Below the pieces are notes generated by a model. That model saw only the letters and a program-made list of their open reading frames with translations, was not told the origin of the DNA and searched no databases. Shown in pieces: positions 3,701 to 60,400 of a stretch of 64,000 nucleotides of DNA. The translations under genes were made by a program, and so were the position numbers. Position 1 is the stretch's first letter. Every line of letters begins with the position of its first letter. The stretch is from an uncultured Flavobacteriaceae bacterium (GTDB taxonomy: Bacteria > Bacteroidota > Bacteroidia > Flavobacteriales > Flavobacteriaceae): positions 189-64,188 of the forward strand of contig CAZAZM010000011.1 in the NCBI GenBank assembly GCA_964489625.1. Reading direction: 5' to 3'.

Positions 3701-4579
3701 TTATTCGCCCTTCAGCAGCTCGATGTATTCATCCAGATTGGCCTTCACCTCAGGCTCCAGGTCGGGCTCGCGGATGTCCGAGTACCCGGAAAGCACCTCG
3801 TATAGGGTGCGGGTGACCATATACCGCGCCGTGGCCTTGTCATCCGCGGGGATTACGTACCAGGGGGCATGAGGCTTCGAGGTTTGGTTGATGGCCTCTT
3901 CATAGCACTCCTGGTATTTGGGCCATAGGGCTCGCTCTTCCAGGTCGCCCGGTGAGAACTTCCAGTGCTTGTTGTCCTTCTCAAGTCGCCTGAGCAACCT
4001 GTTCTTCTGCTCCTCCTTGGATAGATGAAGGAAGAATTTGAAGACGATCGTGCCGTTCTGGCTCAGATGCCTCTCAAAGCTCCTGATCTGCTCAAAGCGC
4101 TGCTCCCAAAACGCGGGGCCAATGTCCTCGACCCGTTCAATGCCCGGCAGGTTCTCTCCGAGTATGTACTCAGGGTGCACCCGGGTCACCAGCACATTCT
4201 CGTAATGGGTACGGTTGAACACGGAGAATTTCCCCCTTTCCGGCAGGGCCAGGTAATGCCTCCAGAGGTAATCGTGGTTCCGCTCGAGCTCCGTGGGCAC
4301 CTTGAAGCTGTGAACCACCACTCCTCTTGAGTTGAAATCCTTGAAGACCTCCCGGATCAGGCTGTCCTTGCCGGAGGTGTCCATGCCCTGCAAACAGACC
4401 AGGACCCCATATTTGCCATGGGCGTATTGAGTGTCCTGCAACTTGCCAAGCTTCCTGCGGACCTTTTTCATTGCGTCCTTTATGCTTTCCTCGTCCGCTT
4501 CCATGTCGAAACGGGTAGCTCTGCGAGAGAGGCTGACAGGGGCTTTTACCTTGAAATCGTCGGGGTGAAAATCTTTCAT
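3701..4579 (-). CDS. ppk2: Polyphosphate kinase 2 family, class III-like (NMP/NDP-phosphorylating)
   Basis: Walker A QGMDTSGKD, FNRTHYENVLV (Glu-type class III signature), PWYVIPADDK. Confidence 0.9.
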   Translation of the reverse strand: MKDFHPDDFKVKAPVSLSRRATRFDMEADEESIKDAMKKVRRKLGKLQDTQYAHGKYGVLVCLQGMDTSGKDSLIREVFKDFNSRGVVVHSFKVPTELERNHDYLWRHYLALPERGKFSVFNRTHYENVLVTRVHPEYILGENLPGIERVEDIGPAFWEQRFEQIRSFERHLSQNGTIVFKFFLHLSKEEQKNRLLRRLEKDNKHWKFSPGDLEERALWPKYQECYEEAINQTSKPHAPWYVIPADDKATARYMVTRTLYEVLSGYSDIREPDLEPEVKANLDEYIELLKGE

Positions 4580-4779: not shown

Positions 4780-5523
4780 ATGTCACTTTATCCGCTGGAA
4801 CACGACCAGGTATACCTCAATCTGCAGACCGAGCTGGTCTGGCTGCAACAGCATATCAAGGAGACGAATCAAAGGCTCATCATTCTGTTCGAAGGACGCG
4901 ACACTGCAGGCAAGGGAGGAGCCATCATGAGGTTCATTCGCTTCCTCAACCCGCGGCTGTTCAAGGTCGTGGCTCTGTCAAAGCCGACGGAAAAGGAGGC
5001 CGGGCAGTGGTATTTTCAAAGATACGTCGAACACCTTCCGGGGCCGGGAGAGATGGCTTTCTTCGACAGGAGCTGGTACAACCGGGCCGTGGTGGAACCC
5101 GTCATGGGATTCTGCACGCAGGAACAATACGACCTCTTCATGGAACAGGTGCTTCTTTTCGAGGACATGCTGGTCAAGGACGGGATCCTGCTCTTCAAGT
5201 TCTGGTTCTCCATCGATGCCGAGGAGCAGAAGAAGAGACTGGATGAGCGAGTTCACAATCCCTTGAAGCAATGGAAGATGAGCAGCGTGGACGTACAGGC
5301 ACAGTCGAAATGGGAGGATTTCACCAAATTCAAGAACGCGATGTTCGAGAAGACCTCCACCCAAAAATCACCCTGGGTGGTGATCAAGGGAAATGACAGG
5401 GAGCTTGCCCGGAAGGAGGCGATCAGGTATGTCGTCCACAACGTCAGCTATGAAAAGAAAGGGAAAACGGGCGAGCGGCTGACCCCTTCGGACGAGATTA
5501 TTTCGGTATACAAAAACGGTTAG
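4780..5523 (+). CDS. ppk2: Polyphosphate kinase 2, class I-like
   Basis: EGRDTAGKGG, FDRSWYNRAVVEPVMGFC, QWKMSSVD. Confidence 0.9.
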   Translation: MSLYPLEHDQVYLNLQTELVWLQQHIKETNQRLIILFEGRDTAGKGGAIMRFIRFLNPRLFKVVALSKPTEKEAGQWYFQRYVEHLPGPGEMAFFDRSWYNRAVVEPVMGFCTQEQYDLFMEQVLLFEDMLVKDGILLFKFWFSIDAEEQKKRLDERVHNPLKQWKMSSVDVQAQSKWEDFTKFKNAMFEKTSTQKSPWVVIKGNDRELARKEAIRYVVHNVSYEKKGKTGERLTPSDEIISVYKNG

Positions 5524-6593: not shown

Positions 6594-7670
6594 ATGAAAA
6601 AAAACTCTATTGACGGGAAAGCCATAGTCTATTGCGAAGGAGCTTTCAACACACCCAATGGAAAAACAGCCCATGGGCTCGTCCGGTTCACAGAGAGATA
6701 CGAGATCGTAGGGGTCCTCGACAGGAACTACGCCGGCCATGACGCCGGGGAGGTGCTCGACGGCAAGCCCAATGGGGTGATGATCTACAAGAGCCTCGAA
6801 TCCGCGGAGAAAAAACTGCTCGAGAAGGGAATCGTCCCCAGGACCATGGTCATAGGCCTTGCCCCCGATGGCGGCAGGTTGCCGGCCTCGGCCAGGGGAA
6901 CGATCAAAAAGGCCCTGGAAATGGGCTGGAACGTGGACAGCGGCCTGCACGATTTCCTGACCAATGACGAGTCACTTGTCAGGCTGGCCCGGGAGAACCA
7001 GTGCACGATCAGGGACATCCGAAAGACCCCGGACAGGGACAAGCTCCACTTTTTCACCGGGGATATCGAGCGGGTCAAATGCCTAAAGCTCGCCGTACTG
7101 GGCACGGACTCCGCCATCGGCAAGCGAACAACGGCCTGGATACTGGTCCATGCCCTCCGGGAAGCCGGCTACAAGGCCGAAATGGTGGGTACGGGGCAGA
7201 CCGCCTGGATGCAGGGAGCCAAATACAGCATGATCATGGACAGCTGCATCAATGACTTCGTTTCGGGAGAGATCGAGCATGCCGTAGTGAGCGCCTATGA
7301 TAACGAGCATCCGGACGTTATCGTGATCGAAGGACAGGGAAGCCTCATGAACCCGGCCTATCCGGGTGGTTTCGAGATCCTGGCCGCAGGGCGCCCGGAC
7401 TACGTCATCCTGCAGCACGCGCCCAAGCGACTGGAATACGACGGGTTCCCCGGGTATCCCCTGCATCCGCTGAAGGAGCAGATACAGGCCATAGAGATCA
7501 TTTCGAGTAAGAAGGTGATCGCAGTGACGGTCAACCACGAGAACATGGAGGAACATGAGATCCCGGAGGCCTGCAAAAAGATCACGGAAGAGACCGGGCT
7601 TCCGGCCTTCGACGTGCTGGCGGACGGAGCCGGTGAACTGGTCCAACACTTAAAAGACAAGATGAAATGA
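6594..7670 (+). CDS. DUF1611-family protein (DgcN-like N-acetyltransferase candidate)
   Basis: GKTAHGLVR, GTDSAIGKRTT P-loop-like motif, IEGQGSL; ATG 6594 (track uses TTG 6591). Confidence 0.85.
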   Translation: MKKNSIDGKAIVYCEGAFNTPNGKTAHGLVRFTERYEIVGVLDRNYAGHDAGEVLDGKPNGVMIYKSLESAEKKLLEKGIVPRTMVIGLAPDGGRLPASARGTIKKALEMGWNVDSGLHDFLTNDESLVRLARENQCTIRDIRKTPDRDKLHFFTGDIERVKCLKLAVLGTDSAIGKRTTAWILVHALREAGYKAEMVGTGQTAWMQGAKYSMIMDSCINDFVSGEIEHAVVSAYDNEHPDVIVIEGQGSLMNPAYPGGFEILAAGRPDYVILQHAPKRLEYDGFPGYPLHPLKEQIQAIEIISSKKVIAVTVNHENMEEHEIPEACKKITEETGLPAFDVLADGAGELVQHLKDKMK

Positions 7671-9211
7671 GCCGCATACGCGACCTGGTCGTATTCGAGA
7701 AGCTGAAGGTTCACAAGGTCCTGGTAGAACCCAAAAGGGTTCGGGCCACCTATTCCGTGTATTCGGGAAATGGGAGCATTGAAAGCCGGGAGCTGATCTA
7801 CAGCTACAACGAACGATATTTCGACCCTGGAGACTGGGAGGATGTCAACCTCGCTTCCATGATGCTTGCCCAGGTGGCGCTGAATTACGGCCTGTTCTTT
7901 GAGACGATCGAATTCGACGGGGTGTATGACGAAGCCGACCAATCCTTTCTCAGGAGCATGATCGAGAATACCTCCCGGGAGATCCTGGTCAACAAGATCC
8001 TGAACCCCACCGAGTTCCTCAAGCCTCCCTACAATGAGACCCAGACAGAGACCATGGAGAGATACACCGCTGCAAAGCTGGTTTTCCTGAACTCGGATCA
8101 CGAGAATCTCAAGAGGAAAGAAGGCTCGCCAAAGCCGGACCTTGACAAATATGCCATCCTGAGCAGTGGCGGCAAGGACAGCCTTTTGACCTACGGCCTG
8201 GTCTCCGAGATCGGGGAAGCGCATCCCGTTTTCATCAACGAGTCGGGTAGGCACTGGTTCTCCGCAGTAAACGCTCACGCCTACTTCAAGGAGCACGAGC
8301 CCAATACGGCCAAGCCCTGGTGCAACAGCGACCGGATCTTCAACTGGATGGCCAAGCAGATGCCCTTTATCAGGGAGAATTTTCAGCAGATCCGGGCAGA
8401 CGTCTACCCGATTCGTCTCTGGACGGTCGCGGTATTCCTGTTCGGCGTATTGCCCATAGCGAGGAAACGCGGGATCGGCAATGTCCTGATCGGGGACGAG
8501 TACGATACGACCATTAAGGGAAACTTCCAGGGAATATCGCATTATCATGCCCTGTACGATCAGAGCAAGTACTTTGACAACGCCATGACCCGCTACTATC
8601 GAAAAAAAGGCTGGGGCATTTACCAATACTCGATACTCAGGAGCCTGTCAGAGCTGCTCATCCTCAAAATACTGGTCCGGCGTTACCCGGAGCTCCAGGC
8701 CCAGCAGGTCTCCTGCCATGCGGCGCACGAGAAGGACGGAAGGATGCTTCCCTGCGGTAACTGCGAGAAATGCAGGAGGATCATCGGCATGCTGAAGGCC
8801 CTGGATGAGGACCCCCAACGCTGCGGTTACACCCCGGAACAGGTGAACAAAGGGCTTGCTGCCCTGTCGAACAAGGGGGTCAAGCAATTGGGAACGGACG
8901 CGGCGCACCTTTACCATTTGCTCCTTTCCAAGGGCCTGATCCCTGAGAACGAGCATACGAAAAGATTGGCCAGGGAGCACGCCTACATTGAAAGACTGCG
9001 CTTCGATTCTGAGAGAAGCCTCATAGCGGACCTTCCCGTCCACGTCCGAAAACCCCTGTTTAAGATCCTGGGGGAGAGCACGGAAGGGGCCGTTCTTCTC
9101 AAAGAGAGGAAATGGGTGGACCTGAACATCGACGAGGAGTTCATGAGCAGCCCTCACTTCCTGTCCCTCAAAGAAGCACCTGTACAGGACCAGCCGAAGG
9201 ATCAGACCTGA
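7667..9211 (+). CDS. PP-loop adenine-nucleotide alpha-hydrolase with a Cys cluster (MurL/QueC-like), function unknown
   Basis: LSSGGKDSLL, YSILRSLSELLI, SCH...PCGNCEKC; ATGA overlap with DUF1611. Confidence 0.75.
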   Translation: MSRIRDLVVFEKLKVHKVLVEPKRVRATYSVYSGNGSIESRELIYSYNERYFDPGDWEDVNLASMMLAQVALNYGLFFETIEFDGVYDEADQSFLRSMIENTSREILVNKILNPTEFLKPPYNETQTETMERYTAAKLVFLNSDHENLKRKEGSPKPDLDKYAILSSGGKDSLLTYGLVSEIGEAHPVFINESGRHWFSAVNAHAYFKEHEPNTAKPWCNSDRIFNWMAKQMPFIRENFQQIRADVYPIRLWTVAVFLFGVLPIARKRGIGNVLIGDEYDTTIKGNFQGISHYHALYDQSKYFDNAMTRYYRKKGWGIYQYSILRSLSELLILKILVRRYPELQAQQVSCHAAHEKDGRMLPCGNCEKCRRIIGMLKALDEDPQRCGYTPEQVNKGLAALSNKGVKQLGTDAAHLYHLLLSKGLIPENEHTKRLAREHAYIERLRFDSERSLIADLPVHVRKPLFKILGESTEGAVLLKERKWVDLNIDEEFMSSPHFLSLKEAPVQDQPKDQT

Positions 9212-32916: not shown

Positions 32917-35211
32917 CTATTTGCCGCTCTCCATCTTCTTCTTGAGGTCTGCCAGATCGCTGATGTCACCCAGGGTGGTCTTTTCAGCGGCCTCAGCCTG
33001 CTTGTTCACGGCTTTGATGTTTCTCTTTTCCTGAGCTCTGAACACGGCCGAGTGTGAAACCACCAGCCTCCTGTATTCCTTGTTGAACTCCAGGACCTTG
33101 AATTCTGCCGTCTCTCCCTTGGCGAGTTTTGACCTGTCCTCTTTTTCCATGTGTCTTCCGGGAACAAAGGCCTCAACCCCGTCGGCAAAGCTGACGATGG
33201 CTCCTTTGTCGGTGACCTCCTTGATGGTTCCGGTGTGAACCGAATCGATCGTGTAGGTCTCCTCGTGCTTGTCCCAGGGGTTCTCGGTGGTCTGCTTGTG
33301 ACCCAGGTTGAGCTTGCGGCCTTCCACGTCGAGTTCGAGAACTTCAACTTCCAGCTTGTCGCCCACCTTCACGAAATCAGAAGGATGCTTGATCTTCTTC
33401 GTCCATGAGAGGTCAGAGATGTAAACCAGTCCGTCGATTCCTTCCTCCAGTTCGACGAAGACGCCGAAGTTGGTGTAGTTTCGAACGGTTCCCGTGTGCT
33501 TGGAGCCCACCGGGTATTTGCTTGTGATGTCGGTCCATGGGTCCGGCTGCAGTTGCTTGATGCCCAGAGACATCTTGCGCTCATCGCGGTCCAGGGTAAG
33601 GATCACAGCCTCTACCTCGTCTCCGACTTTCACGAAGTCCTGGGCAGATCTCAGGTGCGTCGACCAGGACATCTCAGAAACGTGGATCAGGCCTTCAACG
33701 CCTTCGCTCACTTCAATGAATGCTCCATAGTCGGCAATGATCGCAACCCTTCCTTTCACCTTGTCCCCTACTTTGAGTTCAGGATCCAGTGCTTCCCAGG
33801 GGTGCTTGCTCAATTGCTTCAGACCAAGCTGAATTCTTGTCTTCTCATCGTCGAAGTCGAGAATCACCACGTTCAGCTTCTGGTCGAGCTCAACGATCTC
33901 GCTCGGGTGGTTGATCCTGCTCCATGAGAGGTCAGTGATATGAACAAGTCCGTCCACGCCACCCAGGTCAACAAACACTCCGTAGGAAGTGATGTTCTTG
34001 ACAACTCCTTCGAGCACCTGGCCTTTCTCAAGCTGGCTGATGATCTCTTTCTTCTGCTCGGCAAGGTCTGCTTCGATGAGCGCCTTGTGCGATACGACGA
34101 TGTTCTTGAATTCCTGGTTGATCTTCACCACCTTGAACTCCATGTTCTTGTCTACGTACTGATCGTAATCCCTGATGGGTTTTACGTCGATCTGGGATCC
34201 TGGCAGGAAGGCCTCAATGCCGAACACATCCACGATCATACCTCCCTTGGTCCTGCACTTGACATAACCCGTTACGATCTCCTGGTTGTCGTGCGCCTTG
34301 TTCACGCGCTCCCAGGCCTTGATCACACGCGCCTTTCTGTGCGAAAGCACCAGCTGTCCCGTGCTGTCTTCAAGCTTGTCAACCTTTACCTCAACGGTAT
34401 CACCTACTTTGAGGTTCGGGTTGTACCTGAATTCGTTCAGGGAGATGACTCCCTCCGATTTGGAATTGATGTCGATGATGGCCTCGCGATCGGTGATCCT
34501 GACCACGGTCCCTTCAATGACCTGACGCTCCTCTACAAAGCCGATGGTGTTCTCCAGCGCCTCGTCGAATTCTTTCAGCTTATCCTCCTCTACGGCCTCA
34601 ATGCCCTCTTCGTACTTGTCCCAGTCGAAATCCTTCAAAAAGGTCTCAGGGTCTACTTTTTTCTCTTCTTTTTCAACGGCAGGCGCCTCAGGGGCCTTCG
34701 TTTCAGCCGCCGGTGCTTCAGCAACCGGCTTCTCAACCACTTTTTCTTCTACCACTTTCTCTTTTTTGGGTTTGCTTTCTTCCTTTTTGGCTTCGGCCTT
34801 CTCTTCTTTGGCCTCGGCCTTCACTTGCTTTTCTTCGGTCTCATTTTCCTCTTCCGCCTCAGCTTCATCAGCCACATCGTATACCGACTCCGCACCCAGC
34901 TCCTTCACCAGGAGATAATAGAACAGGGCCCTGTACTTCCTTCTGTTTCCGGAACCCAGGATGTCAACGACCTTCTGAATGGCCTCATCCAGCTTTTCGC
35001 TGTCCTCTTGTCCGAGTTTCTTGATCAGGAAGTTCTTTTTGATGGTCTCCAACTCTGCTTTGTTGGAGGAGGACACCAGTTCGGCGTCGTCTTTGTAGAT
35101 GGATGGCCCAAGTCCTTTGGCCACGAGTTTGAAAAGATCCGCGTCGATCGATATACCGAGCTTTTCAGCCTCTTCAGTATACTGATCTATTTTTTCTTGT
35201 AATTTAGACAT
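32917..35211 (-). CDS. rpsA: 30S ribosomal protein S1 with an N-terminal DUF2853-like domain
   Basis: Six S1 repeats (e.g. GVFVDLGGVDGLVHITDLSW) preceded by an E/K/A linker and a 112-aa domain KGLGPSIY...KNFLIKKLG...RRKYRALFYYLL; no internal stop. Confidence 0.95.
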   Translation of the reverse strand: MSKLQEKIDQYTEEAEKLGISIDADLFKLVAKGLGPSIYKDDAELVSSSNKAELETIKKNFLIKKLGQEDSEKLDEAIQKVVDILGSGNRRKYRALFYYLLVKELGAESVYDVADEAEAEEENETEEKQVKAEAKEEKAEAKKEESKPKKEKVVEEKVVEKPVAEAPAAETKAPEAPAVEKEEKKVDPETFLKDFDWDKYEEGIEAVEEDKLKEFDEALENTIGFVEERQVIEGTVVRITDREAIIDINSKSEGVISLNEFRYNPNLKVGDTVEVKVDKLEDSTGQLVLSHRKARVIKAWERVNKAHDNQEIVTGYVKCRTKGGMIVDVFGIEAFLPGSQIDVKPIRDYDQYVDKNMEFKVVKINQEFKNIVVSHKALIEADLAEQKKEIISQLEKGQVLEGVVKNITSYGVFVDLGGVDGLVHITDLSWSRINHPSEIVELDQKLNVVILDFDDEKTRIQLGLKQLSKHPWEALDPELKVGDKVKGRVAIIADYGAFIEVSEGVEGLIHVSEMSWSTHLRSAQDFVKVGDEVEAVILTLDRDERKMSLGIKQLQPDPWTDITSKYPVGSKHTGTVRNYTNFGVFVELEEGIDGLVYISDLSWTKKIKHPSDFVKVGDKLEVEVLELDVEGRKLNLGHKQTTENPWDKHEETYTIDSVHTGTIKEVTDKGAIVSFADGVEAFVPGRHMEKEDRSKLAKGETAEFKVLEFNKEYRRLVVSHSAVFRAQEKRNIKAVNKQAEAAEKTTLGDISDLADLKKKMESGK

Positions 35212-40881: not shown

Positions 40882-41418
40882 ATGCATCAGAAAGTAGTAA
40901 TCACGGGAGGTCCGGGAACAGGAAAGTCTACGGTGATCTCCTCCCTGGAGCAGCTTCAGTTCGCCTGCATGCCCGAAGTTTCCAGGAGCGTCACCCGCGA
41001 AGCCCAAAGAAGGGGGGTCGACCAGCTTTTTCTACATGAGCCCCTCCTCTTCAGTCAACTTTTGCTCGAAAGCAGGATCAATCAGTATGAGCAGGCGGAG
41101 GAATTGAACGACGAACTCGTGTTCTTCGACCGGGGGATCCCGGATGTGATGGGCTATCTCGATTACCTGGGCATGGATTACCCCGAGCTGTACCGGGCCA
41201 AAAGCTTGGAATTGAGATATTCCAGGGTATTCATGATGCCACCCTGGGAAAAGATTTACCAAACGGACAACGAACGATACGAGAGCTTCGAGCAGTCGCT
41301 GCGCATTTATGAGGAATTGAAAAAGGCCTACACCAGCCTCGGCTATGAATTCGACATCATCCCTGAGGCCTCGGTGGACAACAGAGTGGAATTTATCCTG
41401 AACCGACTTGGAATCTAA
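40882..41418 (+). CDS. AAA_28/NadR-like P-loop ATPase
   Basis: VITGGPGTGKST, FFDRGIPD, YQTDNERYE; real start ATG 40882. Confidence 0.85.
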   Translation: MHQKVVITGGPGTGKSTVISSLEQLQFACMPEVSRSVTREAQRRGVDQLFLHEPLLFSQLLLESRINQYEQAEELNDELVFFDRGIPDVMGYLDYLGMDYPELYRAKSLELRYSRVFMMPPWEKIYQTDNERYESFEQSLRIYEELKKAYTSLGYEFDIIPEASVDNRVEFILNRLGI

Positions 41419-43321
41419 TTTGCAGAGAGCACTTGACTGCCTGAGGTCAGTATGGGGCTACCCCGATTTCAGGCCCAGGCAGGCAGAGATCATCCTCGAG
41501 CTCATGCAAGGCAGGGATGTGCTCGCCGTTTTGCCGACCGGGGGCGGCAAATCCCTGTGCTACCAGGTCCCTGCCCTGATCTCGGAGGGGCTTTGCCTGG
41601 TGGTGAGCCCGCTGATCGCACTGATGGAGGACCAGGTCAAAGGCCTGGAGGAACGAGGCGTCAGGGCGATGCAGCTGGGAGGCGGAATGAGTCGGAACGA
41701 GACCATCAAAGCCTTTGACAACCTCCTCTACGGGAATTACAAACTGCTCTACCTCTCCCCGGAAAAGCTTCAGTCGGAACTGGTGCAGGAAAAGCTCAGG
41801 CAGCTGCCCTTGAGCCTGATCGCCATAGACGAAGCTCACTGCATCTCTCAGTGGGGCCATGACTTCCGGCCCTCCTACCTGAAGCTGGGGCTCCTCGGAG
41901 AGCTCTTCCCCGGAACGCCCAGGATCGCCCTCACCGCAACGGCGACAAAAAGGGTTGAGAACGACATCATCGTTCAGCTGGGGCTTCAAAATGCGGTAAG
42001 GTTCAGGGATTCATTCTTCCGCAAGAACCTGAGCATCGGATTGGTCAGAACGGAGAATCCCATGGGAAAGGTATTGCAGATCCTGCAAAAGAAGACAGAA
42101 CCCGCCATCGTATACACCGGTACCCGAAAGGAGACCATCGTCTATGCCGACTACCTGAAGAGACGGGGTATCGACGCCGCCTTCTACCACGGGGGAATGG
42201 ACCGGGAGGAGAGAAGCCTCGCCCTGGAGGGCTGGATGGAAGAGGCCCCCAGGGTCATGGTTGCGACCAATGCCTTCGGAATGGGCATAGACAAGCAAAA
42301 CGTCAGGTGCGTGGTCCATTGCCAGGTCCCGCTCAGCCTGGAAGCCTATGTTCAGGAGATCGGCAGGGCAGGGAGAGACCTGCAGCCTTCCTTTGCCTAC
42401 ATGCTTTACAATGAAAGCAGCATACAGGAAGCCATGGACCTTGTCAGCCGGTCGCTTGCCGATCCCGGATTCTGCAAAAAGGTCTACACGAAATTGAACG
42501 ACTATCAGCAGATCGCCCGAGGAGAGCTCCGTGAAGCTCCCATCTCACTTGACCTGGCTGAATTTTCCAGCCTCTATGACCTGCCCCTGCCGAAGACCTT
42601 TTCCGCCCTGGGTCACCTGGAACGAGAGAGCGTCCTGGTCCTGAACCTGAATCCGAAGGCATTCTCAAGGGTAAGGGTCACTGCAGGGCCAGGCGGCCCG
42701 GGGTCCGGGACCGGGGGAAAGGGCAAGGAGAACAGGGTATTGCAGAGCCTGCTGCGGAACTACGGGGGAATACACGAGCAAAAGGTGCAGGTTCAGGAGT
42801 CACTCATCGCCGCAACGACCAACCTGAGCAGGAAGGAAGTGACCGAATGCCTGCAAAACCTGGATAAAGACGGAATCCTGGTCTACGAAAGATCGGAGGG
42901 CCTTTCAGAACTTCGCTTCCTCGTCCCCAGGGAGGACGACTACGTCCACCGATCCACGGCCAAAAGCATAGAGGCCCGAAACAAGGTCAGGCTGCTTCAT
43001 CTGAAATCCATGCTGGCCTACTGTGCCAATGACCGGATTTGCAGGAACCGGCAACTGATAGCCTATTTTGGTGAAGAGGAGATCGAGGACTGTGGCATGT
43101 GCGACGTGTGCAGATCCAGGAAGCGCGAAGGGGAATGGAAGGGCTATGAGTTCGCAGCCGCGCAGGTGAGGACTCTTTTGGAGGAAAGGCCGCTTGATTT
43201 TTCCCAATTGATGGACGAAATGCAGATAGCCGAGGAACGCCTTGCAAAAACCCTGGATCTGATGCTGGAAAAACAATGGATACGACTAAATTTGCAGGAC
43301 CAATTCGAGCTGAGCAGATGA
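41408..43321 (+). CDS. RecQ-family helicase (second paralogue, no HRDC)
   Basis: PTGGGKS, DEAHCISQWGHDFRPSY, QEIGRAGRD, C-terminal CRN...CGMCDVC. Confidence 0.92.
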   Translation: MESNLQRALDCLRSVWGYPDFRPRQAEIILELMQGRDVLAVLPTGGGKSLCYQVPALISEGLCLVVSPLIALMEDQVKGLEERGVRAMQLGGGMSRNETIKAFDNLLYGNYKLLYLSPEKLQSELVQEKLRQLPLSLIAIDEAHCISQWGHDFRPSYLKLGLLGELFPGTPRIALTATATKRVENDIIVQLGLQNAVRFRDSFFRKNLSIGLVRTENPMGKVLQILQKKTEPAIVYTGTRKETIVYADYLKRRGIDAAFYHGGMDREERSLALEGWMEEAPRVMVATNAFGMGIDKQNVRCVVHCQVPLSLEAYVQEIGRAGRDLQPSFAYMLYNESSIQEAMDLVSRSLADPGFCKKVYTKLNDYQQIARGELREAPISLDLAEFSSLYDLPLPKTFSALGHLERESVLVLNLNPKAFSRVRVTAGPGGPGSGTGGKGKENRVLQSLLRNYGGIHEQKVQVQESLIAATTNLSRKEVTECLQNLDKDGILVYERSEGLSELRFLVPREDDYVHRSTAKSIEARNKVRLLHLKSMLAYCANDRICRNRQLIAYFGEEEIEDCGMCDVCRSRKREGEWKGYEFAAAQVRTLLEERPLDFSQLMDEMQIAEERLAKTLDLMLEKQWIRLNLQDQFELSR

Positions 43322-45387: not shown

Positions 45388-46221
45388 TTATCCGGAAATC
45401 TTCTTGTCGATAAGAAGGCCCTCTAGTCTTTTTGTGATCGCGGTATCGTAGTCCCTCTTCCTGTACCGGCTGACCGAACGGATCCAGTGAATGGAATTTG
45501 TCAGGAACACCTCGTCGGCCTTCAAAAGCTCAAAGGGGGAGATCGAAGTCTCTTCAAGCTCCAGCTCCGGATCCCGGCCAACCGCTTCAATTGCCTTCTT
45601 TCTCATGATCCCGTTGATGCATCCGCATTCAAGGGAAGGCGTAAGCACCCGTTGACCCTTGACCAGGAACAGGTTGGAATCGGTGGCCGACACCAGCTCC
45701 TTTCTTTCGTTGATCAGGACCGAGTTCTGATAGCCGTTCTCGCTCGCGAAGATGCCCGAAAGCACATTTGCCATCCTGTTGTTCGTCTTGATGGTCGACA
45801 AGAGCCCGGATGAAACATGAAAATCCTTGAACAGCTCTATTTCCAGATCTTCCTGAGGCTCCATCTCCATCCCGGAGACATGAATCACAAACCCGGATTG
45901 ATTGCTCTCCGGAAACAGTCCGCCTCCCCCCATCCGGTAGAAACTAACCCTTGCCACGGCGTCCCCTGAAACTCCGCTCGCCTCGAAGGTCCTTTTGATC
46001 TCACGGTCATAGGCCTCAAGCGTGAAGTCGGAAGGGATCTTCATGCGCATCATTCTCATGGAAGACATGAGCCTGAAGTAGTGATCTTCCAGGAACTGGA
46101 TCTCGCCCCGGGACAGTCTCACAACGTCGTACACCCCGTCTCCCAGGGTGAAAGCCCTGTTTTGATACAGGGGCATTTCACCGTTTTCCTCAACCAAAGA
46201 GCCATTGTGGTTAATGATCAT
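45388..46221 (-). CDS. Class IV PLP aminotransferase (PabC/IlvE-like)
   Basis: NRAFTLGDGVYD, LSTIKTNN, GCINGIMR, EVFLTNS. Confidence 0.85.
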   Translation of the reverse strand: MIINHNGSLVEENGEMPLYQNRAFTLGDGVYDVVRLSRGEIQFLEDHYFRLMSSMRMMRMKIPSDFTLEAYDREIKRTFEASGVSGDAVARVSFYRMGGGGLFPESNQSGFVIHVSGMEMEPQEDLEIELFKDFHVSSGLLSTIKTNNRMANVLSGIFASENGYQNSVLINERKELVSATDSNLFLVKGQRVLTPSLECGCINGIMRKKAIEAVGRDPELELEETSISPFELLKADEVFLTNSIHWIRSVSRYRKRDYDTAITKRLEGLLIDKKISG

Positions 46222-46302
46222 GCTCTCTCTTTTTTGCATTAAAAAAGCCCTGATAACAAGGCTTGAGTCATAAATTCGAAAATGTCGTCGTCTGAGGATC
46301 GA

Positions 46303-50075: not shown

Positions 50076-50897
50076 CTAATAGACCTCCGGCACGAAGGTC
50101 TGGTTGGTGAAGGGCGTGCGTATGTAGGCCCGGTCCTCTCGCCTGGGAGGCAATTCGATCTTCTCGCGCTCCACCTCCTTGTAATCGATCATGCTGAGCA
50201 GGTGGTGGATGCAATTGAGCCTCGCCCTCTTCTTGTTGTCGGCGGGAACCACGTACCAGGGGGACTGCTTGGTGTCGGTGTATTTGAACATCTCGTCCTT
50301 GGCCCGGCTGTACTCGATCCAGTGTTCCCGGGATTTGAGGTCCATGGGACTGATCTTCCAGGTCTTGGTCGGGTCCTCGATACGGTCGCGAAACCTCCTC
50401 TCCTGCTCTTCATCGGAGACCGAAAACCAATATTTGAGAAGGATGATCCCGGATCGGATGAGCATGCGCTCGAATTCGGGACAGGAGCGCATGAACTCAT
50501 TGTATTCCTCGGGCGTGCAGAATCCCATCACGTACTCCACTCCTGCCCGGTTGTACCAGCTGCGATCAAAGAGCACCATCTCGCCTGCGCTCGGCAGGTG
50601 AGGCACGTATCTCTGGAAATACCATTGGCTCTTCTCCCGGCTGGAAGGAGTTCCCAGGGCGACGATCTTGCAGACCCTGGGATTCATGCTCTGGGAGATC
50701 CGCTTGATCACACCACCCTTGCCGGCAGCATCCCTGCCCTCGAAGATGACCACGACCTTCAGGCCCTTGTGCTTGATCCACTCCTGGAGCTTGACCAGTT
50801 CGACCTGTAACCTCTCCAATTCTTTTTCATAGAAAGCATTGCTGATTTTTTTTGTGTCTCTTTTCTCCGGTTCTACATTCCTGGATGTTTCCTCCAT
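50076..50897 (-). CDS. ppk2: Polyphosphate kinase 2, class I-like (third PPK2 in the window)
   Basis: EGRDAAGKGG, FDRSWYNRAGVEYVMGFC, WKISPMD. Confidence 0.95.
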   Translation of the reverse strand: MEETSRNVEPEKRDTKKISNAFYEKELERLQVELVKLQEWIKHKGLKVVVIFEGRDAAGKGGVIKRISQSMNPRVCKIVALGTPSSREKSQWYFQRYVPHLPSAGEMVLFDRSWYNRAGVEYVMGFCTPEEYNEFMRSCPEFERMLIRSGIILLKYWFSVSDEEQERRFRDRIEDPTKTWKISPMDLKSREHWIEYSRAKDEMFKYTDTKQSPWYVVPADNKKRARLNCIHHLLSMIDYKEVEREKIELPPRREDRAYIRTPFTNQTFVPEVY

Positions 50898-50946: not shown

Positions 50947-53145
50947 TCAATTCGCAACTTCGCTGATGAACTTGATGCGCATGATCCTGAGCTCCTCGTC
51001 GTCATAATCCCCATCGAATTCGTCCAGGGCCAACTGTATCCTGTCGCTCTCCGCCTCCATGAAATACTCCATGATCTCCTCCTGCTGCTCCTCGTCGAGC
51101 ATCTCGTCGATGCAATAGTCTATGTTGATCTTGGTCCCGGAATAGACGATCTGCTCCATTGCCTTGACCAGCTCCTCCATCTCGAGGCCTTTGGAATTGG
51201 CGATGTCGACAAGGGGTATCTTCTTGTCGGTGTTCTGTATGATATAGAGCTTCAGACCCGAATTGACCCCCGTGCCCTTGACGATCAGGTCATCCGGCCG
51301 CGTGATGTCGTTGTCCTCCACGTACCTTGCGATCAGCTCCACGAACTCCTTTCCGAATTTCTTCGCCTTGCCTTCCCCCACGCCGTGCACATTGGACATC
51401 TCCTGCAGGTTGGTTGGGTATTTCAGGGTCATGTCCTCCAGGGAAGGATCCTGGAACACCACAAAGGGAGGCACCCCGTTCTCCTTCGCCACTTTCTTGC
51501 GCAGCTCCTTGAGCATTTTCATCAGCTGCTCGTCCACAACGGCCCCGGTTCCCTTGGCGCTGCTCACGATGCCCTGATCCGATTCCTCCTCGTAAACGTG
51601 ATCCTCGGTCATCATGAAGGATCCGGGATTCTTCAGGAAGTCCTTTCCCTCGCGGGTCAGCTTCAGCACCCCGTACTGCTCGATCTCCTTCTTCAGCAGA
51701 CCGGCCACGATCACCTGTCGTATCAGCGCCATCCAGTGCTTGTCGTCCTTTTCCTTCCCTATGCCGAAAAATGGCTCCTGGTGGGTCTTGTGGGAAATGA
51801 GCAGGGCATTTTCCTTCCCGATCAGGGTGTTTATGATCTCTTTTGAGCGATATTCCTCCTTGGTGTCCTTGACCACCTTGAGCAGGGTTTTCACTTCTTG
51901 CCCGGCTTCCTTTCTCTTCTTCGGGTTCCTGACATTGTCGTCCATGTCGGCCCCCTCACCGTTCACCTCGTCAAACTCCTCCCCGAAATAGTGGAGCAGG
52001 AACTTGCGGCGTGACATGGAGGTCTCGGCATAGGCGACTACCTCCTGGAGGAGCGCATTGCCGATCTCCTGCTCGGCAACCGGCTTGCCCGCGAGGAACT
52101 TCTCAAGCTTCTCGATGTCCTTGTAGGAATAATAGGCCAGGCAATGTCCTTCTCCCCCGTCCCTTCCGGCGCGACCCGTTTCCTGGTAATAGCTCTCCAG
52201 GCTCTTGGGAATGTCGTGATGGATCACGAACCGGACGTCGGGCTTGTCTATTCCCATGCCGAAGGCGATGGTGGCCACAACCACGTCCACGTCTTCCATC
52301 AGGAACATGTCCTGGTGTCTCGCGCGGGTCTTGGCGTCAAGCCCCGCGTGATAGGGTATGGCCTTGATGTCGTTAACCTGGAGCAGCTGTGCTATGTCTT
52401 CGACCTTCTTCCTGCTCAGGCAATAGATGATGCCGGATTTTCCCTTGTGGTTGTTGATGAAACGGATGATGTCCTTTTCGACGTCCTTGGTCTTGGGCCT
52501 CACCTCATAAAAGAGGTTGGGCCGGTTGAAGGAGGCCTTGAAGGTCTTGGCCTTCGGAATGCCCAGGTTCTTCAAAATGTCATCCTGGACCTTGGAGGTG
52601 GCCGTGGCCGTCAGCCCGATGATCGGGAATTTCCCTATCCTTTTGATGATGCTGCGCAGGTTCCTGTACTCGGGCCTGAAGTCGTGGCCCCATTCCGAGA
52701 TGCAATGGGCCTCGTCAATCGCCACGAAGGAGATCTTCTGGCGTTTGAGGAAATCTATGTTCTCTTCCTTGGTCAAAGATTCCGGCGCCACGTAAAGCAG
52801 CTTTGTGATCCCGTTCTCGATGTCGCTCTTGACCCTGGCCACCTCGCCCTTGTTCAGGGATGAGTTCAGGACATGGGCCACTCCTTCTTCTTCTGTGGTG
52901 CTGCGGATGGCATCCACCTGGTTCTTCATCAGAGCGATCAGGGGAGAGACCACGATGGCCGTGCCCTCCAGGATCAAGGCGGGCAGCTGGTAGATCAGGG
53001 ATTTTCCACCACCCGTGGGCATCACCACAAAAATATCATTCCCCTCGACCAGACTCTCGATAGCATCCTGCTGCAATCCTTTAAACTTACTGAATCCGAA
53101 ATATTTCTTCAAATATTTCTGCAAGTCAATTTTTGCCACTTTCAT
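50947..53145 (-). CDS. recQ: DNA helicase RecQ with an HRDC domain
   Basis: PTGGGKS, DEAHCISEWGHDFRPEY, QETGRAGRDG, HRDC VPPFVVFQD. Confidence 0.95.
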   Translation of the reverse strand: MKVAKIDLQKYLKKYFGFSKFKGLQQDAIESLVEGNDIFVVMPTGGGKSLIYQLPALILEGTAIVVSPLIALMKNQVDAIRSTTEEEGVAHVLNSSLNKGEVARVKSDIENGITKLLYVAPESLTKEENIDFLKRQKISFVAIDEAHCISEWGHDFRPEYRNLRSIIKRIGKFPIIGLTATATSKVQDDILKNLGIPKAKTFKASFNRPNLFYEVRPKTKDVEKDIIRFINNHKGKSGIIYCLSRKKVEDIAQLLQVNDIKAIPYHAGLDAKTRARHQDMFLMEDVDVVVATIAFGMGIDKPDVRFVIHHDIPKSLESYYQETGRAGRDGGEGHCLAYYSYKDIEKLEKFLAGKPVAEQEIGNALLQEVVAYAETSMSRRKFLLHYFGEEFDEVNGEGADMDDNVRNPKKRKEAGQEVKTLLKVVKDTKEEYRSKEIINTLIGKENALLISHKTHQEPFFGIGKEKDDKHWMALIRQVIVAGLLKKEIEQYGVLKLTREGKDFLKNPGSFMMTEDHVYEEESDQGIVSSAKGTGAVVDEQLMKMLKELRKKVAKENGVPPFVVFQDPSLEDMTLKYPTNLQEMSNVHGVGEGKAKKFGKEFVELIARYVEDNDITRPDDLIVKGTGVNSGLKLYIIQNTDKKIPLVDIANSKGLEMEELVKAMEQIVYSGTKINIDYCIDEMLDEEQQEEIMEYFMEAESDRIQLALDEFDGDYDDEELRIMRIKFISEVAN

Positions 53146-56484: not shown

Positions 56485-57423
56485 CTACCATCGCGGGCTT
56501 CCTCTTCTCGATTCGAAATCGTATCCCAGCGTGAGCATGTGAGTCCCTCCATGATTTAACTCATTTGCTTCATTAATATTGTATGAAAATGCATATCCGA
56601 CGTAAAAATCCTTCTTTTTTAGCCCTAAAAGCGGGGTTATGGCCAGTGGCTCAAAGCTCTGATCATTGATGAACCGGGTGCTGAATCCCGCCCAGTAATA
56701 GCCGTCCTCCGTGATCTTCTTTCCCTTGACGTTGATGTCGGTGATCGATCTCTGATCGCTCTCGAAGTACTTGAAGTACAGCGAAGGCTCCAATTCCCAG
56801 ACACCTTCCTCGAACTCGAAGGTGTATCCCGTGTAGATATAATAGTTCCTCAGCTTCTTCGGTTCCGACTCGTCGAACACCTTCAGGCTCTTGTTCAGGA
56901 TGTTGGCAGCGTTGAAGCTGAAAAAGAAGCGCTGGATCTTGTACATGACGGCCGCGTCGAAGTTGTGATTCGAAGACGAGATGTTGGATCCCAGCAGGGG
57001 ATCGTTGTTCGGGTCGTCGAAGTCTGAGAAATCGATCCTGAACTGGGTGAATTTGTAGGACAGGCCGAATGACAGGTACTGCTCGTTGCTGCTCTTCAGG
57101 GTCAGGTGATGGGCAAAGGAAAGCTGCCCCCCGATCTGCGAGGTGTTCCCGTTCTTGTCCAGGTAGAACACTCCGCCAATCCCCGAACGCTCAAGTATAT
57201 GGGCGTCATAGGACAGGGTTTGCGTATTCGGGGCGTTCTTGAGACCCACCCACTGAAAGGCGCTGGTCAGTCGCAAACGGTTCATTTCGGAATCCCCTGC
57301 ATAGGCCGGCGAGATCAGGAAAGGATTCTCAACCAGGTACTGCGTGTAGGGCGTGAGTTTGAACTCCTGGGCATAGCCCAGACCCGTTGCCAGAAATATG
57401 AGTATTACTATGATTCGTTTCAT
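56485..57423 (-). CDS. PorP/SprF-family T9SS outer-membrane beta-barrel
   Basis: YTQYLVENPFLISPAYAG, QWVGL..APNTQTLS, GTHMLTLGY; directly after a type-B CTD gene. Confidence 0.9.
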   Translation of the reverse strand: MKRIIVILIFLATGLGYAQEFKLTPYTQYLVENPFLISPAYAGDSEMNRLRLTSAFQWVGLKNAPNTQTLSYDAHILERSGIGGVFYLDKNGNTSQIGGQLSFAHHLTLKSSNEQYLSFGLSYKFTQFRIDFSDFDDPNNDPLLGSNISSSNHNFDAAVMYKIQRFFFSFNAANILNKSLKVFDESEPKKLRNYYIYTGYTFEFEEGVWELEPSLYFKYFESDQRSITDINVKGKKITEDGYYWAGFSTRFINDQSFEPLAITPLLGLKKKDFYVGYAFSYNINEANELNHGGTHMLTLGYDFESRRGSPRW

Positions 57424-57431
57424 AACGCTTT

Positions 57432-60400
57432 CTATCTAACTAAGCTAAAATTCCCTTTAAACACCCTGTTGTCCGATCTCTCGTTGAGACTGATCACGTA
57501 CCAGTAGTCTCCACTCGGCAGCGGGCTTCCCTTGTAGTATCCGTCCCAGCTGTGGGTATTGCCCTCGTAGCTGGCCAGCAGGCGCTGGTACCTGTCGAAG
57601 ATCTTGACCGAGATGCTCGGATAGATCTCTATGTTGATCGGATACCAGGTATCATTGATTCCATCTCCCTGGGGGGTGAAGAAATCCGGAATTTCAATGT
57701 CGAGGAACTCCAGGAAGAAAGTTTGCTCAAGGACGCAGCCTCTCTGGTCCCTGACCGCGAAGACATAGTCCCGCGTCTCTCTCGAGTTCCTCAGATTGAG
57801 CACATTGTTGAGTCCGAAATCGTCATTCGAATCCAGGCTGTACTCGTAGTCGGGGTTGCCACCTGAAGCAACCACGGTGTATTCGTTGATGCCGGTCTCC
57901 ACCAGCTCGAAGCTGATCGGCTCGTATCTTTCCACGGTCACTTCCACCGGGTCGTCACCGCATCCGAATTCCTTGTGCCTCACGGTCACCGTGTGCTTTC
58001 CGGCGCTCACGTCCTCGAAGATCCCCGAGTCCTGGCTGATGTTGCCATCCAGGATATAGGTCACCTCGTTCTCATAGATCGGGTCCACGCTCGCGATGAT
58101 CATATTGTTGGCTCCCTCGCAGGAGAAATCAGTGGTCGCGGTGAGGTCAAGCTCGATGAGCTGCTCAACCTTCAGGGTCTCCTGCATCACGCAGGAGTGG
58201 AATTCGTTTTCCTTTTTGATGTAGAGCTCGTAGCTGCCCACTTCCAGGCCGCCGAATTCAGGGCTGTTCTTGTAGGTGTTTCCATCCAGGCTGTAGCTGA
58301 TCTTGTACCCCTGGTCATTCGACACGCTTATATTGATCCTGCCGTCCGAGTCTCCCACGCAGATCACGTCCTCCTGGGCAACCTCGTACTCGATCTCCTT
58401 GTCCAGCCCCATGGGCACTTCAGCCGTGGCCGTGCAGCCATTGGCATCCCTGACGATCACCTCGTACACTTTCTCGATATTGGCCGTGAAATCGGTCTCG
58501 GACTGGTAGCTCTGCCCGTTGTCGATGCTGTACTCGTAAGGAGCGACACCGCCAGTGGCAGAAGCCCTTATCCCTCCGCTCAACACCTCTCCGTTGCACA
58601 TTGCCGCATTGTAGAGTTTGCTCGCGCTGATCTGCAGCAGGGTCGGCTCGGCGATCGAGAACTCGGATACGTCGAAGCATCCGTCGGCGTTGATCGATTT
58701 GACCGTGTAATTTCCGATATCCAGATTGGAGAAGACGTGCTCGGATGAGGTCTTGGTGACCGAGTTCAACATGCTCGATCCGCGGTAAAGCTCAAAAGTA
58801 TAGGAGCTGGAATCTTCGTTGATCTTGACGTTGACGCTTCCGTTGCTGTCCTTGCACAGTGCGTCTGCCGGGGTCACGGTCACGTCGAGCCCAAGCACGG
58901 TTACCACCCTCGTGGTCTCTGTACATCCGGTCCTTCTTTGCGTCGCGGTGTATACTCCCGCACCGGTTACGGTGATCTCCTTGGTGTTTCCGATCACATT
59001 GCCCGCCTCATCGGTCCAGATATAGGTGTCATAGCCATCGTCTCCCTCAAAGGTCAGGCTGTTGTTGCAGAAGAACAGCTCGCTGTCAAAGGAGCAGGAG
59101 CTCGTGTCGACAAAAAGGTCCATGGAGCCCACGCTTCCCAGTCCGCAGCCATTGATCCCGTTGAGACCCGGCTGTCCGGATACGTTCTGCCCGGAGGTTT
59201 CCCCGTCATAGTAAGAGCTGATGCTGTTCTCCAGCAGGTTGGTACAGGCGTCCGAATAGTCAAAGCACTGGTCAGAGGCCGTAACCTGGTACCTGATGGA
59301 ATGGCTTGTTGAGAGAACCCGTCGCTCCACGAGATCGTCGGCGATCTCGAACCTGAGCTCCCGGCTTGCCGAATTATAGGTATAGCTCACACCCGCCGGC
59401 ACTTCGATGGAACCCTCGTCCAGGGTGACATTGATGGGCAGGGTATTGAGTATATAGGTGTTCTGAGCGTTGTCCGTACCGATGTTCTGGAAGTCGATGT
59501 TGTACCAGACGGTGGATCCCAGGGGCACCGGAGACTGGTGGGTGATCTGGTTGCCCGAAGTGTCCTCCACGCTGGTGATCACTTGCAGGTTGGGCTCTAT
59601 GATGTTGATCGAGAAGGTATTGAGGAAGGTGTAGATCCAGTCTCCCCCAACGTCGTTGGTGACCCTTACCGTGGCACCGGTCTCCCCGTTCCCTATAAGA
59701 TTGTTCCCGGGATTCAGATCCGTCAGATTCAAAAGTTTTTGATCCCAACCCAAAGTGTTGGTACTATTGAGGTTACGATCAGTCACCTGAGATCCGTCTT
59801 TAGTTATCTTACTGTTGAAGAAGTTGTTTGCTTCGTTCTCTGCATCATACAAGGGCGTGAAGCCTGCATTGCCATCGGCCTTGAAGAGCAGCTGGTCTCC
59901 GTACCAGCCCAGGTCCCCTTCCAGCGCTGCGACCCCTACCCGGCCTTCCACAGGTCCTGAAGGAGGAGTCGTGAACCCCGAATAGTTGAAGTCCACCTGG
60001 TTGTTGGGCGCATCCCGGACGGCAGAGAAACCATCAAAGGTCGAGATGTATTTGCGCGTCTCATTCGGATCCTCATACACGATGACAAGGGACCAGCCCG
60101 CTGAGCTGTTGGCACCTTCGGAGGAACTGATGTTCGCGACGAAATAGTCGCCCGAGATATTGTTGTTGGTCGCTACTATCGAAGTAACGTCCTTATAGTA
60201 AATGAGATCTATGGTCAGGTCAGCCGTGATGTCCTGGTAGGGTTTCCCCGGGATCTTGAACTTGATATTCTCGGGTTCCAGGTTGGCAGGAGCCGAAACG
60301 GCACCCCAGTAAAGTCCGGCATATACGATACGGTTACAGGCATCGGTAGTAAAACGTGCGCTGCTGGAATTGAAGGTGCTGGCATTGTTGTCAATATCAA

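Follow-up and report, generated by a model that had tools for sequence, protein, structure and literature searches.

A sister family of the peptide epimerase MurL encoded within a conserved five-gene operon of Bacteroidota

Introduction

What is a MurL-like gene doing where no gene for cell-wall synthesis adjoins it? The question is raised by a 64,000-nucleotide stretch of the genome of an uncultured Flavobacteriaceae bacterium (NCBI GenBank assembly GCA_964489625.1, contig CAZAZM010000011.1, positions 189 to 64,188 of the forward strand; hereafter the window), which encodes a 514-residue protein with the motifs of a PP-loop ATP pyrophosphatase. MurL itself, which depends on ATP and Mg, epimerises a C-terminal Glu from L to D in one direction only and forms AMP, by a route proposed to pass through an acyl-adenylate of the alpha-carboxylate (PMC5808125, PMC8788868). 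An earlier note, made from the DNA letters of the window, had described the gene as an orphan. We found the opposite: five genes form an operon that is conserved across phyla, with this one in the middle, and fusions to two of the neighbouring genes occur.

The gene and its product

The open reading frame (ORF) and every motif listed in the earlier note were recovered, in the same order and place (Table 1). It is not a chance ORF, because more than 3000 homologues were found at E ≤ 1e-3 and the motifs are invariant in a 26-sequence alignment of the family. About 150 positions are invariant in that alignment, all of the noted motifs among them, and the best 120 homologues are 63–99% identical over nearly the full length. 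Neither the protein nor the family profile matched any entry in our local copy of Pfam, in NCBIfam, in PADLOC or among the PDB sequences.

An AlphaFold2 model of the protein (mean predicted local distance difference test score, pLDDT, 85; predicted template modelling score, pTM, 0.86) comprises an N-terminal alpha/beta domain (approximately residues 1–150), a PP-loop domain, a four-Cys knuckle and a C-terminal helical/beta domain (residues 380–500). In the model, SSGGKDS (residues 166–172) sits after a strand (residues 158–166) and before a helix (residues 170–182); an SGGxDS motif that ends the first strand of a Rossmann-like domain is the mark of a PP-loop ATP pyrophosphatase, and the protein has it. 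Residues 191–258, which have no counterpart in MurL, are highly conserved in sequence, with pLDDT values of 52–57 in blocks 191–200 and 241–260, and are a candidate substrate lid or partner interface.

Kinship with MurL

Reference MurL sequences were obtained with a profile built from two distant matches of the window's protein, P0226 and P0254 (P numbers are our handles for proteins), which retrieved P0276 and P0277. Both of the latter carry the precomputed Pfam domains PF26298 and PF26299 (named MurL_epimerase_C and MurL_N) and match the NCBIfam model NF041275 at E 3e-75 and 2e-68 (231–254 bits). The gene order around P0276 is mraY, murL, murD-like, ftsW, murG, and its NF041275 match together with its place between mraY and the murD-like gene identifies it as a genuine MurL in the expected setting. 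The MurL motifs that the earlier note had quoted from recall proved to be real: GGGKDS, YFSFLRPL.E and SCN...WCGxCPKC are present in P0276 and P0277 (YFSFLRPLYE and WCGECPKC in P0276).

Comparison of the family with 22 diverse MurL sequences in hhalign gave a probability of 97.4% (E 1e-11, 250 columns), residues 80–379 of the window's protein pairing with residues 86–347 of MurL. The same comparison with QueC gave 3.5% over 16 columns, in the Cys knuckle only. In hidden Markov model (HMM) searches, the MurL HMM scored 26 of 26 family members at 25–40 bits, 538 shuffled sequences at no more than 6.4 bits and QueC at no more than 1.5 bits; the reverse search with the family HMM agreed and gave two QueC sequences −2.3 to −1.3 bits. 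The view that the protein is much closer in sequence to MurL than to QueC is thus borne out by both methods. BLASTP aligned it with P0276 at E 2e-8 with 24% identity across residues 85–376, identity to MurL being approximately 24–28% in the core only, and the bridging sequence P0226 matches both the window's protein (1e-25) and NF041275 (7e-10).

The hhalign pairing joins E278, H292, Q299 and K301 to MurL residues E242, H259, Q260 and K263, which are invariant in the 22-sequence MurL alignment, and R325 and E329 to the MurL invariants R290 and E294. The invariant MurL residues S313, C314, C331, C334, K336 and C337 likewise have identical partners in the family. SSGGKDSLL aligns with the GGGKDS of MurL; in a joint 22-sequence alignment of family members, bridging sequences and MurL, neither S172 nor any of the four Cys varies, and G168 and G169 are almost unchanged. 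The Cys pattern of MurL is C314-x16-C331-x2-C334-x2-C337. An AlphaFold2 model of P0276 (pLDDT 93) has its secondary-structure elements in the same order as the window's protein from the N-terminus to the Cys knuckle. No MurL structure is available in the PDB, where a MurL profile finds only the PP-loop of TtuA and MnmA.

This kinship does not amount to orthology. The window's protein has no NCBIfam match at E ≤ 0.01, NF041275 included. PF26298 and PF26299 appear in the precomputed Pfam annotation of none of the 120 homologues listed (119 blank, P0101 with PF02633 only), and all 120 relatives of P0276 listed carry both. The local Pfam copy holds neither MurL model and leaves even P0276 unmatched, so empty results from it cannot exclude MurL membership. 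The earlier assignment to the MurL family therefore stands as a statement of homology, on hhalign and HMM evidence, and falls as one of membership by the curated models. As judged from profile comparisons, the protein is a true but remote MurL homologue, in a sister family that shares the QueC-like PP-loop fold. It cannot be called a MurL orthologue, because it fails to match NF041275, the relatives listed lack the MurL Pfam domains, a conserved insertion is present, the C-terminal domain is of another kind, and no mur gene was found among the window ORFs scanned.

Distribution and genomic context

A scan of GTDB (185,579 species genomes, one genome per species) detected relatives in 254 species. 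The carriers are mostly marine Bacteroidota of the Flavobacteriaceae, Saprospiraceae, Marinilabiliales and Cytophagales; others are Desulfobacula, one Desulfatiglandaceae bacterium and one Melioribacteraceae bacterium. The nearest species match of the MurL-like protein is approximately 71% identical. The family is compact, since an exhaustive search of 1.84 billion cluster representatives returned just 378 at E ≤ 1e-3. UniRef names some members (P0010 and P0011) 7-cyano-7-deazaguanine synthase and others "hypothetical"; the former label is probably an over-annotation drawn from the PP-loop and the Cys knuckle, and the profile comparisons disagree with it.

Genomic context was compared in the best 80 of the 254 species, for which 10 kb were fetched on either side of the gene. 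The five operon proteins are 52–89% identical to their counterparts in the window. The creatininase gene is directly downstream of the MurL-like gene in 77 of the 80 species, and the epimerase gene comes next in 67 of the 72 loci whose downstream DNA was long enough. Upstream, the genes for the pyridoxal phosphate (PLP) enzyme and the DUF1611 protein are directly adjacent in 60 of the 72 loci with enough DNA on that side and lie 9–10 kb away, behind an inserted block, in eight further loci. All five genes stand together in colinear order in 55 of the 67 loci for which both flanks were available, and even members with 30–35% identity to the window's protein still adjoin PALP (PLP) and DUF1611 genes. 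In the window, the ATG of the MurL-like gene overlaps the TGA of the DUF1611 gene (ATGA), and the ATG of the fifth gene overlaps the creatininase stop codon by 1 nt; these overlaps count in favour of one pathway.

The absence of an adjacent mur gene, already remarked on in the earlier note, holds among the 50 window ORFs scanned (most, not all, of those of at least 200 residues), and no mur ligase gene lies beside the MurL-like gene in any of the 80 species. Clustering of neighbouring ORFs at the 80 loci revealed neither a transporter nor a regulator that was conserved along with the five genes. Rfam found no riboswitch in the window or in seven related loci, and a promoter/terminator scan scored no better than shuffled sequence.

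The first gene product matches NCBIfam NF004996 at 400 bits (cut-off 266), and its best PDB sequences are threonine synthases. The second scores 164 bits with the NCBIfam DgcN model, under the cut-off of 480. For the fourth, the top NCBIfam model is the MftE peptidyl-dipeptidase (143 bits, under the cut-off of 172), and the fifth scores 126 bits with DgcA, under the cut-off of 400.

The fifth protein was compared with dipeptide epimerases of known structure. Its best PDB sequences are all of this kind (3rit, 1jpm and 3jva; E 1e-57 to 1e-59), B. subtilis YkfB (1jpm) matching at E 8e-58, and it is 29% identical to E. coli YcjG. The two align at LKxK, D189, E215, D240, K264 and D317-L-D319 (ADLDG), the residues by which a dipeptide epimerase is recognised. 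We take the aligned Asp/Glu/Asp positions to be the metal ligands, and the DxD motif presumably binds the ammonium group of the dipeptide, as we understand work of the Gerlt laboratory. The N-terminal loop IARGSRSEA of YcjG reads IAYETVSSA in the fifth protein, with both Arg replaced; one of the two, we assume, binds the Glu side chain in YcjG. Because the loop arginines are not kept, the fifth protein likely has a different, non-Glu dipeptide specificity.

Additions to the operon were seen in Flavobacteriaceae. A fusion of GNAT and carbon-nitrogen-hydrolase domains directly follows it in 18 of the 80 loci. The inserted block mentioned above, found in eight loci between the DUF1611 and MurL-like genes, encodes a 966-aa PPDK_N protein, two beta-lactamase-like proteins and a HEAT-repeat protein; in Maribacter the PPDK_N/beta-lactamase-like/HEAT-repeat block is located just upstream of the operon. 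These additions can be seen in loci L020 (13424–14950), L028 (1852–4752), L040 (4755–6014), L009 (3840–6659) and L030 (8856–9773).

Table 1 Coordinates in the window of the operon genes, of the motifs of the MurL-like protein and of the gene preceding the operon.
Feature	Position	Strand	Basis or remark
Gene 1, fold-type II PLP enzyme, threonine-synthase-like, 353 aa	5528..6589	+	Pfam PALP E 5e-58
Gene 2, DUF1611 protein, DgcN-like, 359 aa	6591..7670	+	Pfam DUF1611_N, DUF1611; probable start ATG 6594
Gene 3, MurL-like PP-loop ATP pyrophosphatase (unnamed family), operon middle, 514 aa	7667..9211	+	ORF and translation
PP-loop motif SSGGKDSLL, aa 166–174, predicted ATP-pyrophosphate site	8162..8188	+	S166–L174 invariant in family
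Family-specific insertion relative to MurL, aa 191–258 (NESGRHW, KPWCNSDR, RADxYPIRLWT)	8237..8440	+	MurL gapped here
NVLIGDE, aa 272–278	8480–8500	+	
MurL-shared core motifs GNVLIGDEYD (E278), GISHY (H292), YDQSKYFDN (Q299, K301)	8480..8581	+	Unaligned to QueC
YSILRSLSELLI, aa 321–332, counterpart of MurL FSFLRPLYEIQI	8627..8662	+	S322 invariant in joint alignment
SCH, aa 349–351	8711–8719	+	
Four-Cys site C350-x12-C363-x2-C366-x2-C369, QueC-type Zn pattern	8711..8773	+	Putative metal binding
CGNCEKC, aa 363–369	8753–8773	+	11 residues past SCH
Gene 4, creatininase-family metal amidohydrolase, 266 aa	9267..10067	+	Pfam Creatininase E 1e-72
Gene 5, enolase-superfamily dipeptide epimerase-like protein, 350 aa	10067..11119	+	Pfam MR_MLE_N, MR_MLE_C
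PPK2 polyphosphate kinase	4780..5523	+	TIGR03707 327 bits (cut-off 301.8); ends 5 nt before operon

Fusions and distant relatives

The MurL-like protein is fused to creatininase in P0101, P0122, P0123, P0172 and P0175 (the last two 26–29% identical) and to DUF1611 in P0124, which suggests physical contact of the MurL-like enzyme with the DUF1611 protein and the amidohydrolase. One protein, P0125, is a fusion with a methyltransferase.

Several distant relatives depart from the pattern of the window. The creatininase-fused P0172 and P0175 have the degenerate PP-loops VDGTRES and VSGSAES in place of SGGKDS, and P0211 lacks a PP-loop; all three keep the Cys knuckle and may be non-catalytic or have a different mode of nucleotide binding. 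P0254 (448 aa; locus L089, 7001–8347, also in L090) is encoded between QueC and a TGT/DpdA-like gene on a phage-like contig, with QueD, radical-SAM QueE-like and FolE genes upstream and a family B DNA polymerase gene downstream, and looks like an uncharacterised part of a viral 7-deazaguanine DNA-modification cluster. In Thorarchaeota, the gene for P0274 (L091, 1837–3198) adjoins those for a Ddl-like ATP-grasp ligase, a GNAT acetyltransferase and a PALP enzyme, so that in an archaeon, too, a MurL-like protein occurs with a PLP enzyme and with one that acylates or ligates.

Proposed function

From the observed homology, fold, operon and fusions we infer an adenylation, a class of substrate, and an order and direction of steps. 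On balance we lean towards a carboxylate-adenylating enzyme that acts on a dipeptide or acyl-amino acid within a five-enzyme module; that it is specifically an epimerase is held with lower confidence. The substrate is most likely a dipeptide or an N-acyl amino acid because the enzyme is accompanied by a dipeptide epimerase, an amide hydrolase and a protein resembling acyl- or aminoacyl-transferases. The idea put forward in the earlier note, that the C-terminal residue acted on may be that of an acyl-amino acid or peptide other than the substrate of MurL, fits the neighbouring genes.

In the proposed mechanism, the SGGKDS loop would bind ATP, and a carboxylate, likeliest the C-terminal alpha-carboxylate of the dipeptide or N-acyl amino acid, would be adenylated with release of pyrophosphate, while C350, C363, C366 and C369 would hold a structural metal, as in QueC. 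The adenylate would preferably be resolved by the MurL route, that is, by inversion at C-alpha and then hydrolysis to AMP; the alternative would be attack by an amine. The MurL-like outcome is favoured because the residues shared with MurL span the whole catalytic core. Within the module, the amino acid concerned would be a product or a substrate of the PLP enzyme. An amino acid would be made or acylated, the stereocentre of the C-terminal residue inverted, and the amide then cleaved by the creatininase-type enzyme. Inversion by the enolase-type enzyme would be reversible, and ATP would allow the MurL-like enzyme to impose a one-way direction, the whole amounting to D/L editing, driven by ATP, of a dipeptide or N-acyl amino acid.

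A more elaborate version of this proposal is one that we hold tentatively and regard as rather unlikely: the module would be an undescribed ATP-driven stereo-editing (deracemisation) pathway in which the MurL-like enzyme is complexed with the creatininase-type amidohydrolase and the DUF1611 protein. The adenylate could then cyclise, for example to an oxazolone or a lactam, and the hydrolase could open the ring stereoselectively.

Several points weigh against the main proposal of adenylation followed by inversion. The operon already has an epimerase, and a second one looks redundant. One distant homologue, P0254, belongs to a phage 7-deazaguanine cluster, and the degenerate PP-loops of some creatininase-fused distant members mean that ATP use may not be family-wide. 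The DUF1611 and enolase-type genes are far under the DgcN and DgcA cut-offs, which leaves the analogy with a D-Glu pathway loose, and none of the transporter, regulator and riboswitch searches described above offers a hint of the substrate. Finally, QueC-family enzymes adenylate a carboxylate and hand it to a nitrogen nucleophile, and QueC, Cap9 and probably QatC resolve the adenylate in this way and not by epimerisation (PMC13279940).

The last point leads to the explanation that competes best, an amide-forming ligase or cyclase, which we consider possible though somewhat unlikely. Here an amine, be it ammonia, an amino acid or the amino group of the substrate itself, would attack the acyl-adenylate. 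The resulting dipeptide or pseudopeptide, amide or lactam would be epimerised by the dipeptide epimerase and cleaved or opened by the creatininase-type (cyclic) amidohydrolase. The redundancy of two epimerases would disappear, and the fold neighbours QueC, Cap9 and QatC do, or are proposed to do, exactly such an adenylation followed by attack of nitrogen (PMC13279940). The archaeal homologue beside a Ddl-like ATP-grasp ligase and a GNAT protein, and the position of P0254 between QueC and a TGT-like gene on a phage-like contig, point the same way, as does the hydrolysis of cyclic and linear amides by creatininase-family enzymes, judged by family names. What holds the ligase back is that sequence similarity to QueC is limited to the Cys knuckle, whereas the motifs held in common with the epimerase MurL extend over the whole catalytic core, and that the operon contains no glutaminase or ammonia-donor gene.

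Fold similarity to QueC, QatC and Cap9

Foldseek searches of the PDB with the model of the window's protein placed QatC first (9y01_B and 9y02_B), followed by QueC (2pg3 and 3bl5) and Cap9 (9nto_B), with a probability of 1.00 and full-length TM-scores to these proteins of just 0.3–0.46. TtuA, LarE and GMP synthetase were lower matches, and the viral structure matches were phage QueC proteins. A structure search had been suggested as a check on the MurL assignment, and it does favour QatC, QueC and Cap9, but it is non-discriminating, since the model of the genuine MurL P0276 gives the same top list (QatC, QueC, TtuA, Cap9). The models thus indicate that the window's protein and MurL are both on the QueC/QatC-type PP-loop ATP-pyrophosphatase fold. 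The four-Cys site also has the C-x(n)-C-x2-C-x2-C form seen in E. coli QueC (C187-x8-C196-x2-C199-x2-C202).

These top Foldseek matches, the UniRef labels and the QueC-type Cys pattern would suit a QueC paralogue or a QatC/Cap9-type protein modifier, active in 7-deazaguanine metabolism or in anti-phage defence; Cap9 and probably QatC carry out the QueC-type reaction on protein N-termini (PMC13279940). We consider this reading very improbable. PF06508 (QueC) gave no match even at E ≤ 10, the hhalign probability with QueC is the 3.5% reported above (1.7% for MurL with QueC), and the fold, common to genuine MurL, does not decide the matter. Membership in qatABCD or type IV CBASS systems is contradicted by the lack of a PADLOC match and by metabolic neighbours in the 80 species. 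No queD, queE, qatABD or CBASS gene is in the operon in those species, and the folE gene of the window is 13 kb off on the opposite strand. A standard MurL is the least credible reading of all: homology by hhalign is in its favour, but NF041275 has no match at E ≤ 0.01 whereas MurL of the candidate phyla radiation (CPR, Patescibacteria) reach 230–250 bits, PF26298/PF26299 are in none of the homologues listed and identity is confined to the core, genuine MurL is in a dcw/mur cluster while the window's gene is tied to another operon in at least 55 species, and 254 of 185,579 species is a patchy, accessory-type distribution unlike that of an essential cell-wall enzyme. The standard MurL, QueC paralogue and defence-component readings were accordingly rejected on profile, context and PADLOC evidence.

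Other features of the window

The PPK2 gene directly preceding the operon may be co-transcribed with it here. A functional link, in which the kinase would recycle AMP or nucleoside diphosphates for an AMP-forming enzyme, was considered and rejected, the arrangement being conserved in 0 of the 80 loci. The window contains three PPK2 genes, the other two at 3701–4579 and 50076–50897 (both on the minus strand), and one of these other two is divergent from the first gene of the operon. A class IV aminotransferase gene (45388–46239) was considered as a source of D-amino-acid transaminase and likewise set aside, as the protein is more PabC-like and under all cut-offs.

Elsewhere the window holds ordinary chromosomal genes together with genes for type IX secretion, a system typical of Bacteroidota. 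A gene for ribosomal protein S1 (32917–35211, minus strand) encodes six S1 domains and a fused N-terminal DUF2853. Two RecQ-family helicase genes are within 10 kb of each other (41408–43321, plus strand; 50947–53145, minus strand), one of them without RQC and HRDC domains. A type IX secretion PorP/SprF gene adjoins the gene for a 1063-aa SprB-repeat protein with a CHU_C sorting domain (56485–60623, minus strand).

Significance

Our literature searches, which covered few subscription journals, returned nothing relevant on MurL-like families or on the combination of DUF1611, creatininase and dipeptide epimerase, and a 2026 review of the QueC family is silent on MurL, creatininase and DUF1611. 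In the literature so covered, the MurL-like family and the five-gene operon are undescribed, and of the MurL family no enzyme but MurL has been characterised. MurL is mechanistically unusual as an ATP-consuming peptide epimerase, and it now has a second, large sister family of more than 3000 proteins in at least 254 species. From the finding that this family is locked in a different and very conserved operon, we conclude that MurL-type chemistry is probably used outside cell-wall synthesis. What is new is the sister family and its pathway setting; neither the fold nor the class of chemistry is new.

The family has no Pfam or NCBIfam model, which marks a gap in annotation. A pathway context would follow for a DUF1611 subgroup, a creatininase-family subgroup and a ThrC-like PLP enzyme. 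If the deracemisation proposal is true, MurL chemistry would extend past peptidoglycan, and the DUF1611 and creatininase subgroups would gain their first pathway-level role in Bacteroidota. Laboratory work has a starting point in cultured hosts, among them Maribacter, Zeaxanthinibacter, Kordia, Aquimarina and Draconibacterium, in five co-expressed enzymes and in a defined class of substrate.

Comparison with known systems

Among characterised enzymes, MurL has the same domain order as the window's protein (N-terminal alpha/beta domain, PP-loop, four-Cys knuckle and helical C-terminal part) and shares with it the motifs GGKDS, (N)E, H, Q.SK.F, S.LR.L.E, SC and CGxCxKC. Unlike MurL, the window's protein has a conserved insertion of approximately 40–70 residues past the PP-loop and a different C-terminal domain. 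Its gene belongs to an operon for PLP, DUF1611, creatininase and dipeptide epimerase proteins with no mur/dcw neighbours in the 80 species, whereas that of MurL P0276 is in a dcw/mur cluster. The substrate must differ from that of MurL.

QueC, QatC and Cap9 have in common with the protein the PP-loop ATPase fold and the C-x(n)-C-x2-C-x2-C site, and QatC also has an extra N-terminal domain, as here. Unlike these three, the MurL-like gene has no deazaguanine or defence gene context. YcjG and YkfB, the L-Ala-D/L-Glu epimerases of peptidoglycan-peptide recycling, have all their catalytic residues kept in the fifth protein; unlike their setting, no mpaA- or ykfC-type peptidase gene is linked to the operon.

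The nearest analogue at the level of the whole operon is the DgcN/DgcA route of D-glutamate catabolism. That route pairs a DUF1611 N-acetyltransferase with an enolase-type N-acetyl-D-Glu racemase; the operon likewise encodes a DUF1611 protein and a racemase or epimerase of the enolase superfamily, together with an amidohydrolase able in principle to deacylate. To our knowledge, the DgcN/DgcA pair has no MurL-like, creatininase or PLP partner. Unlike DgcN and DgcA themselves, the second and fifth proteins do not reach the equivalog cut-offs of the two models, and the fifth, in contrast to DgcA, is closest to true dipeptide epimerases and keeps their DxD motif.

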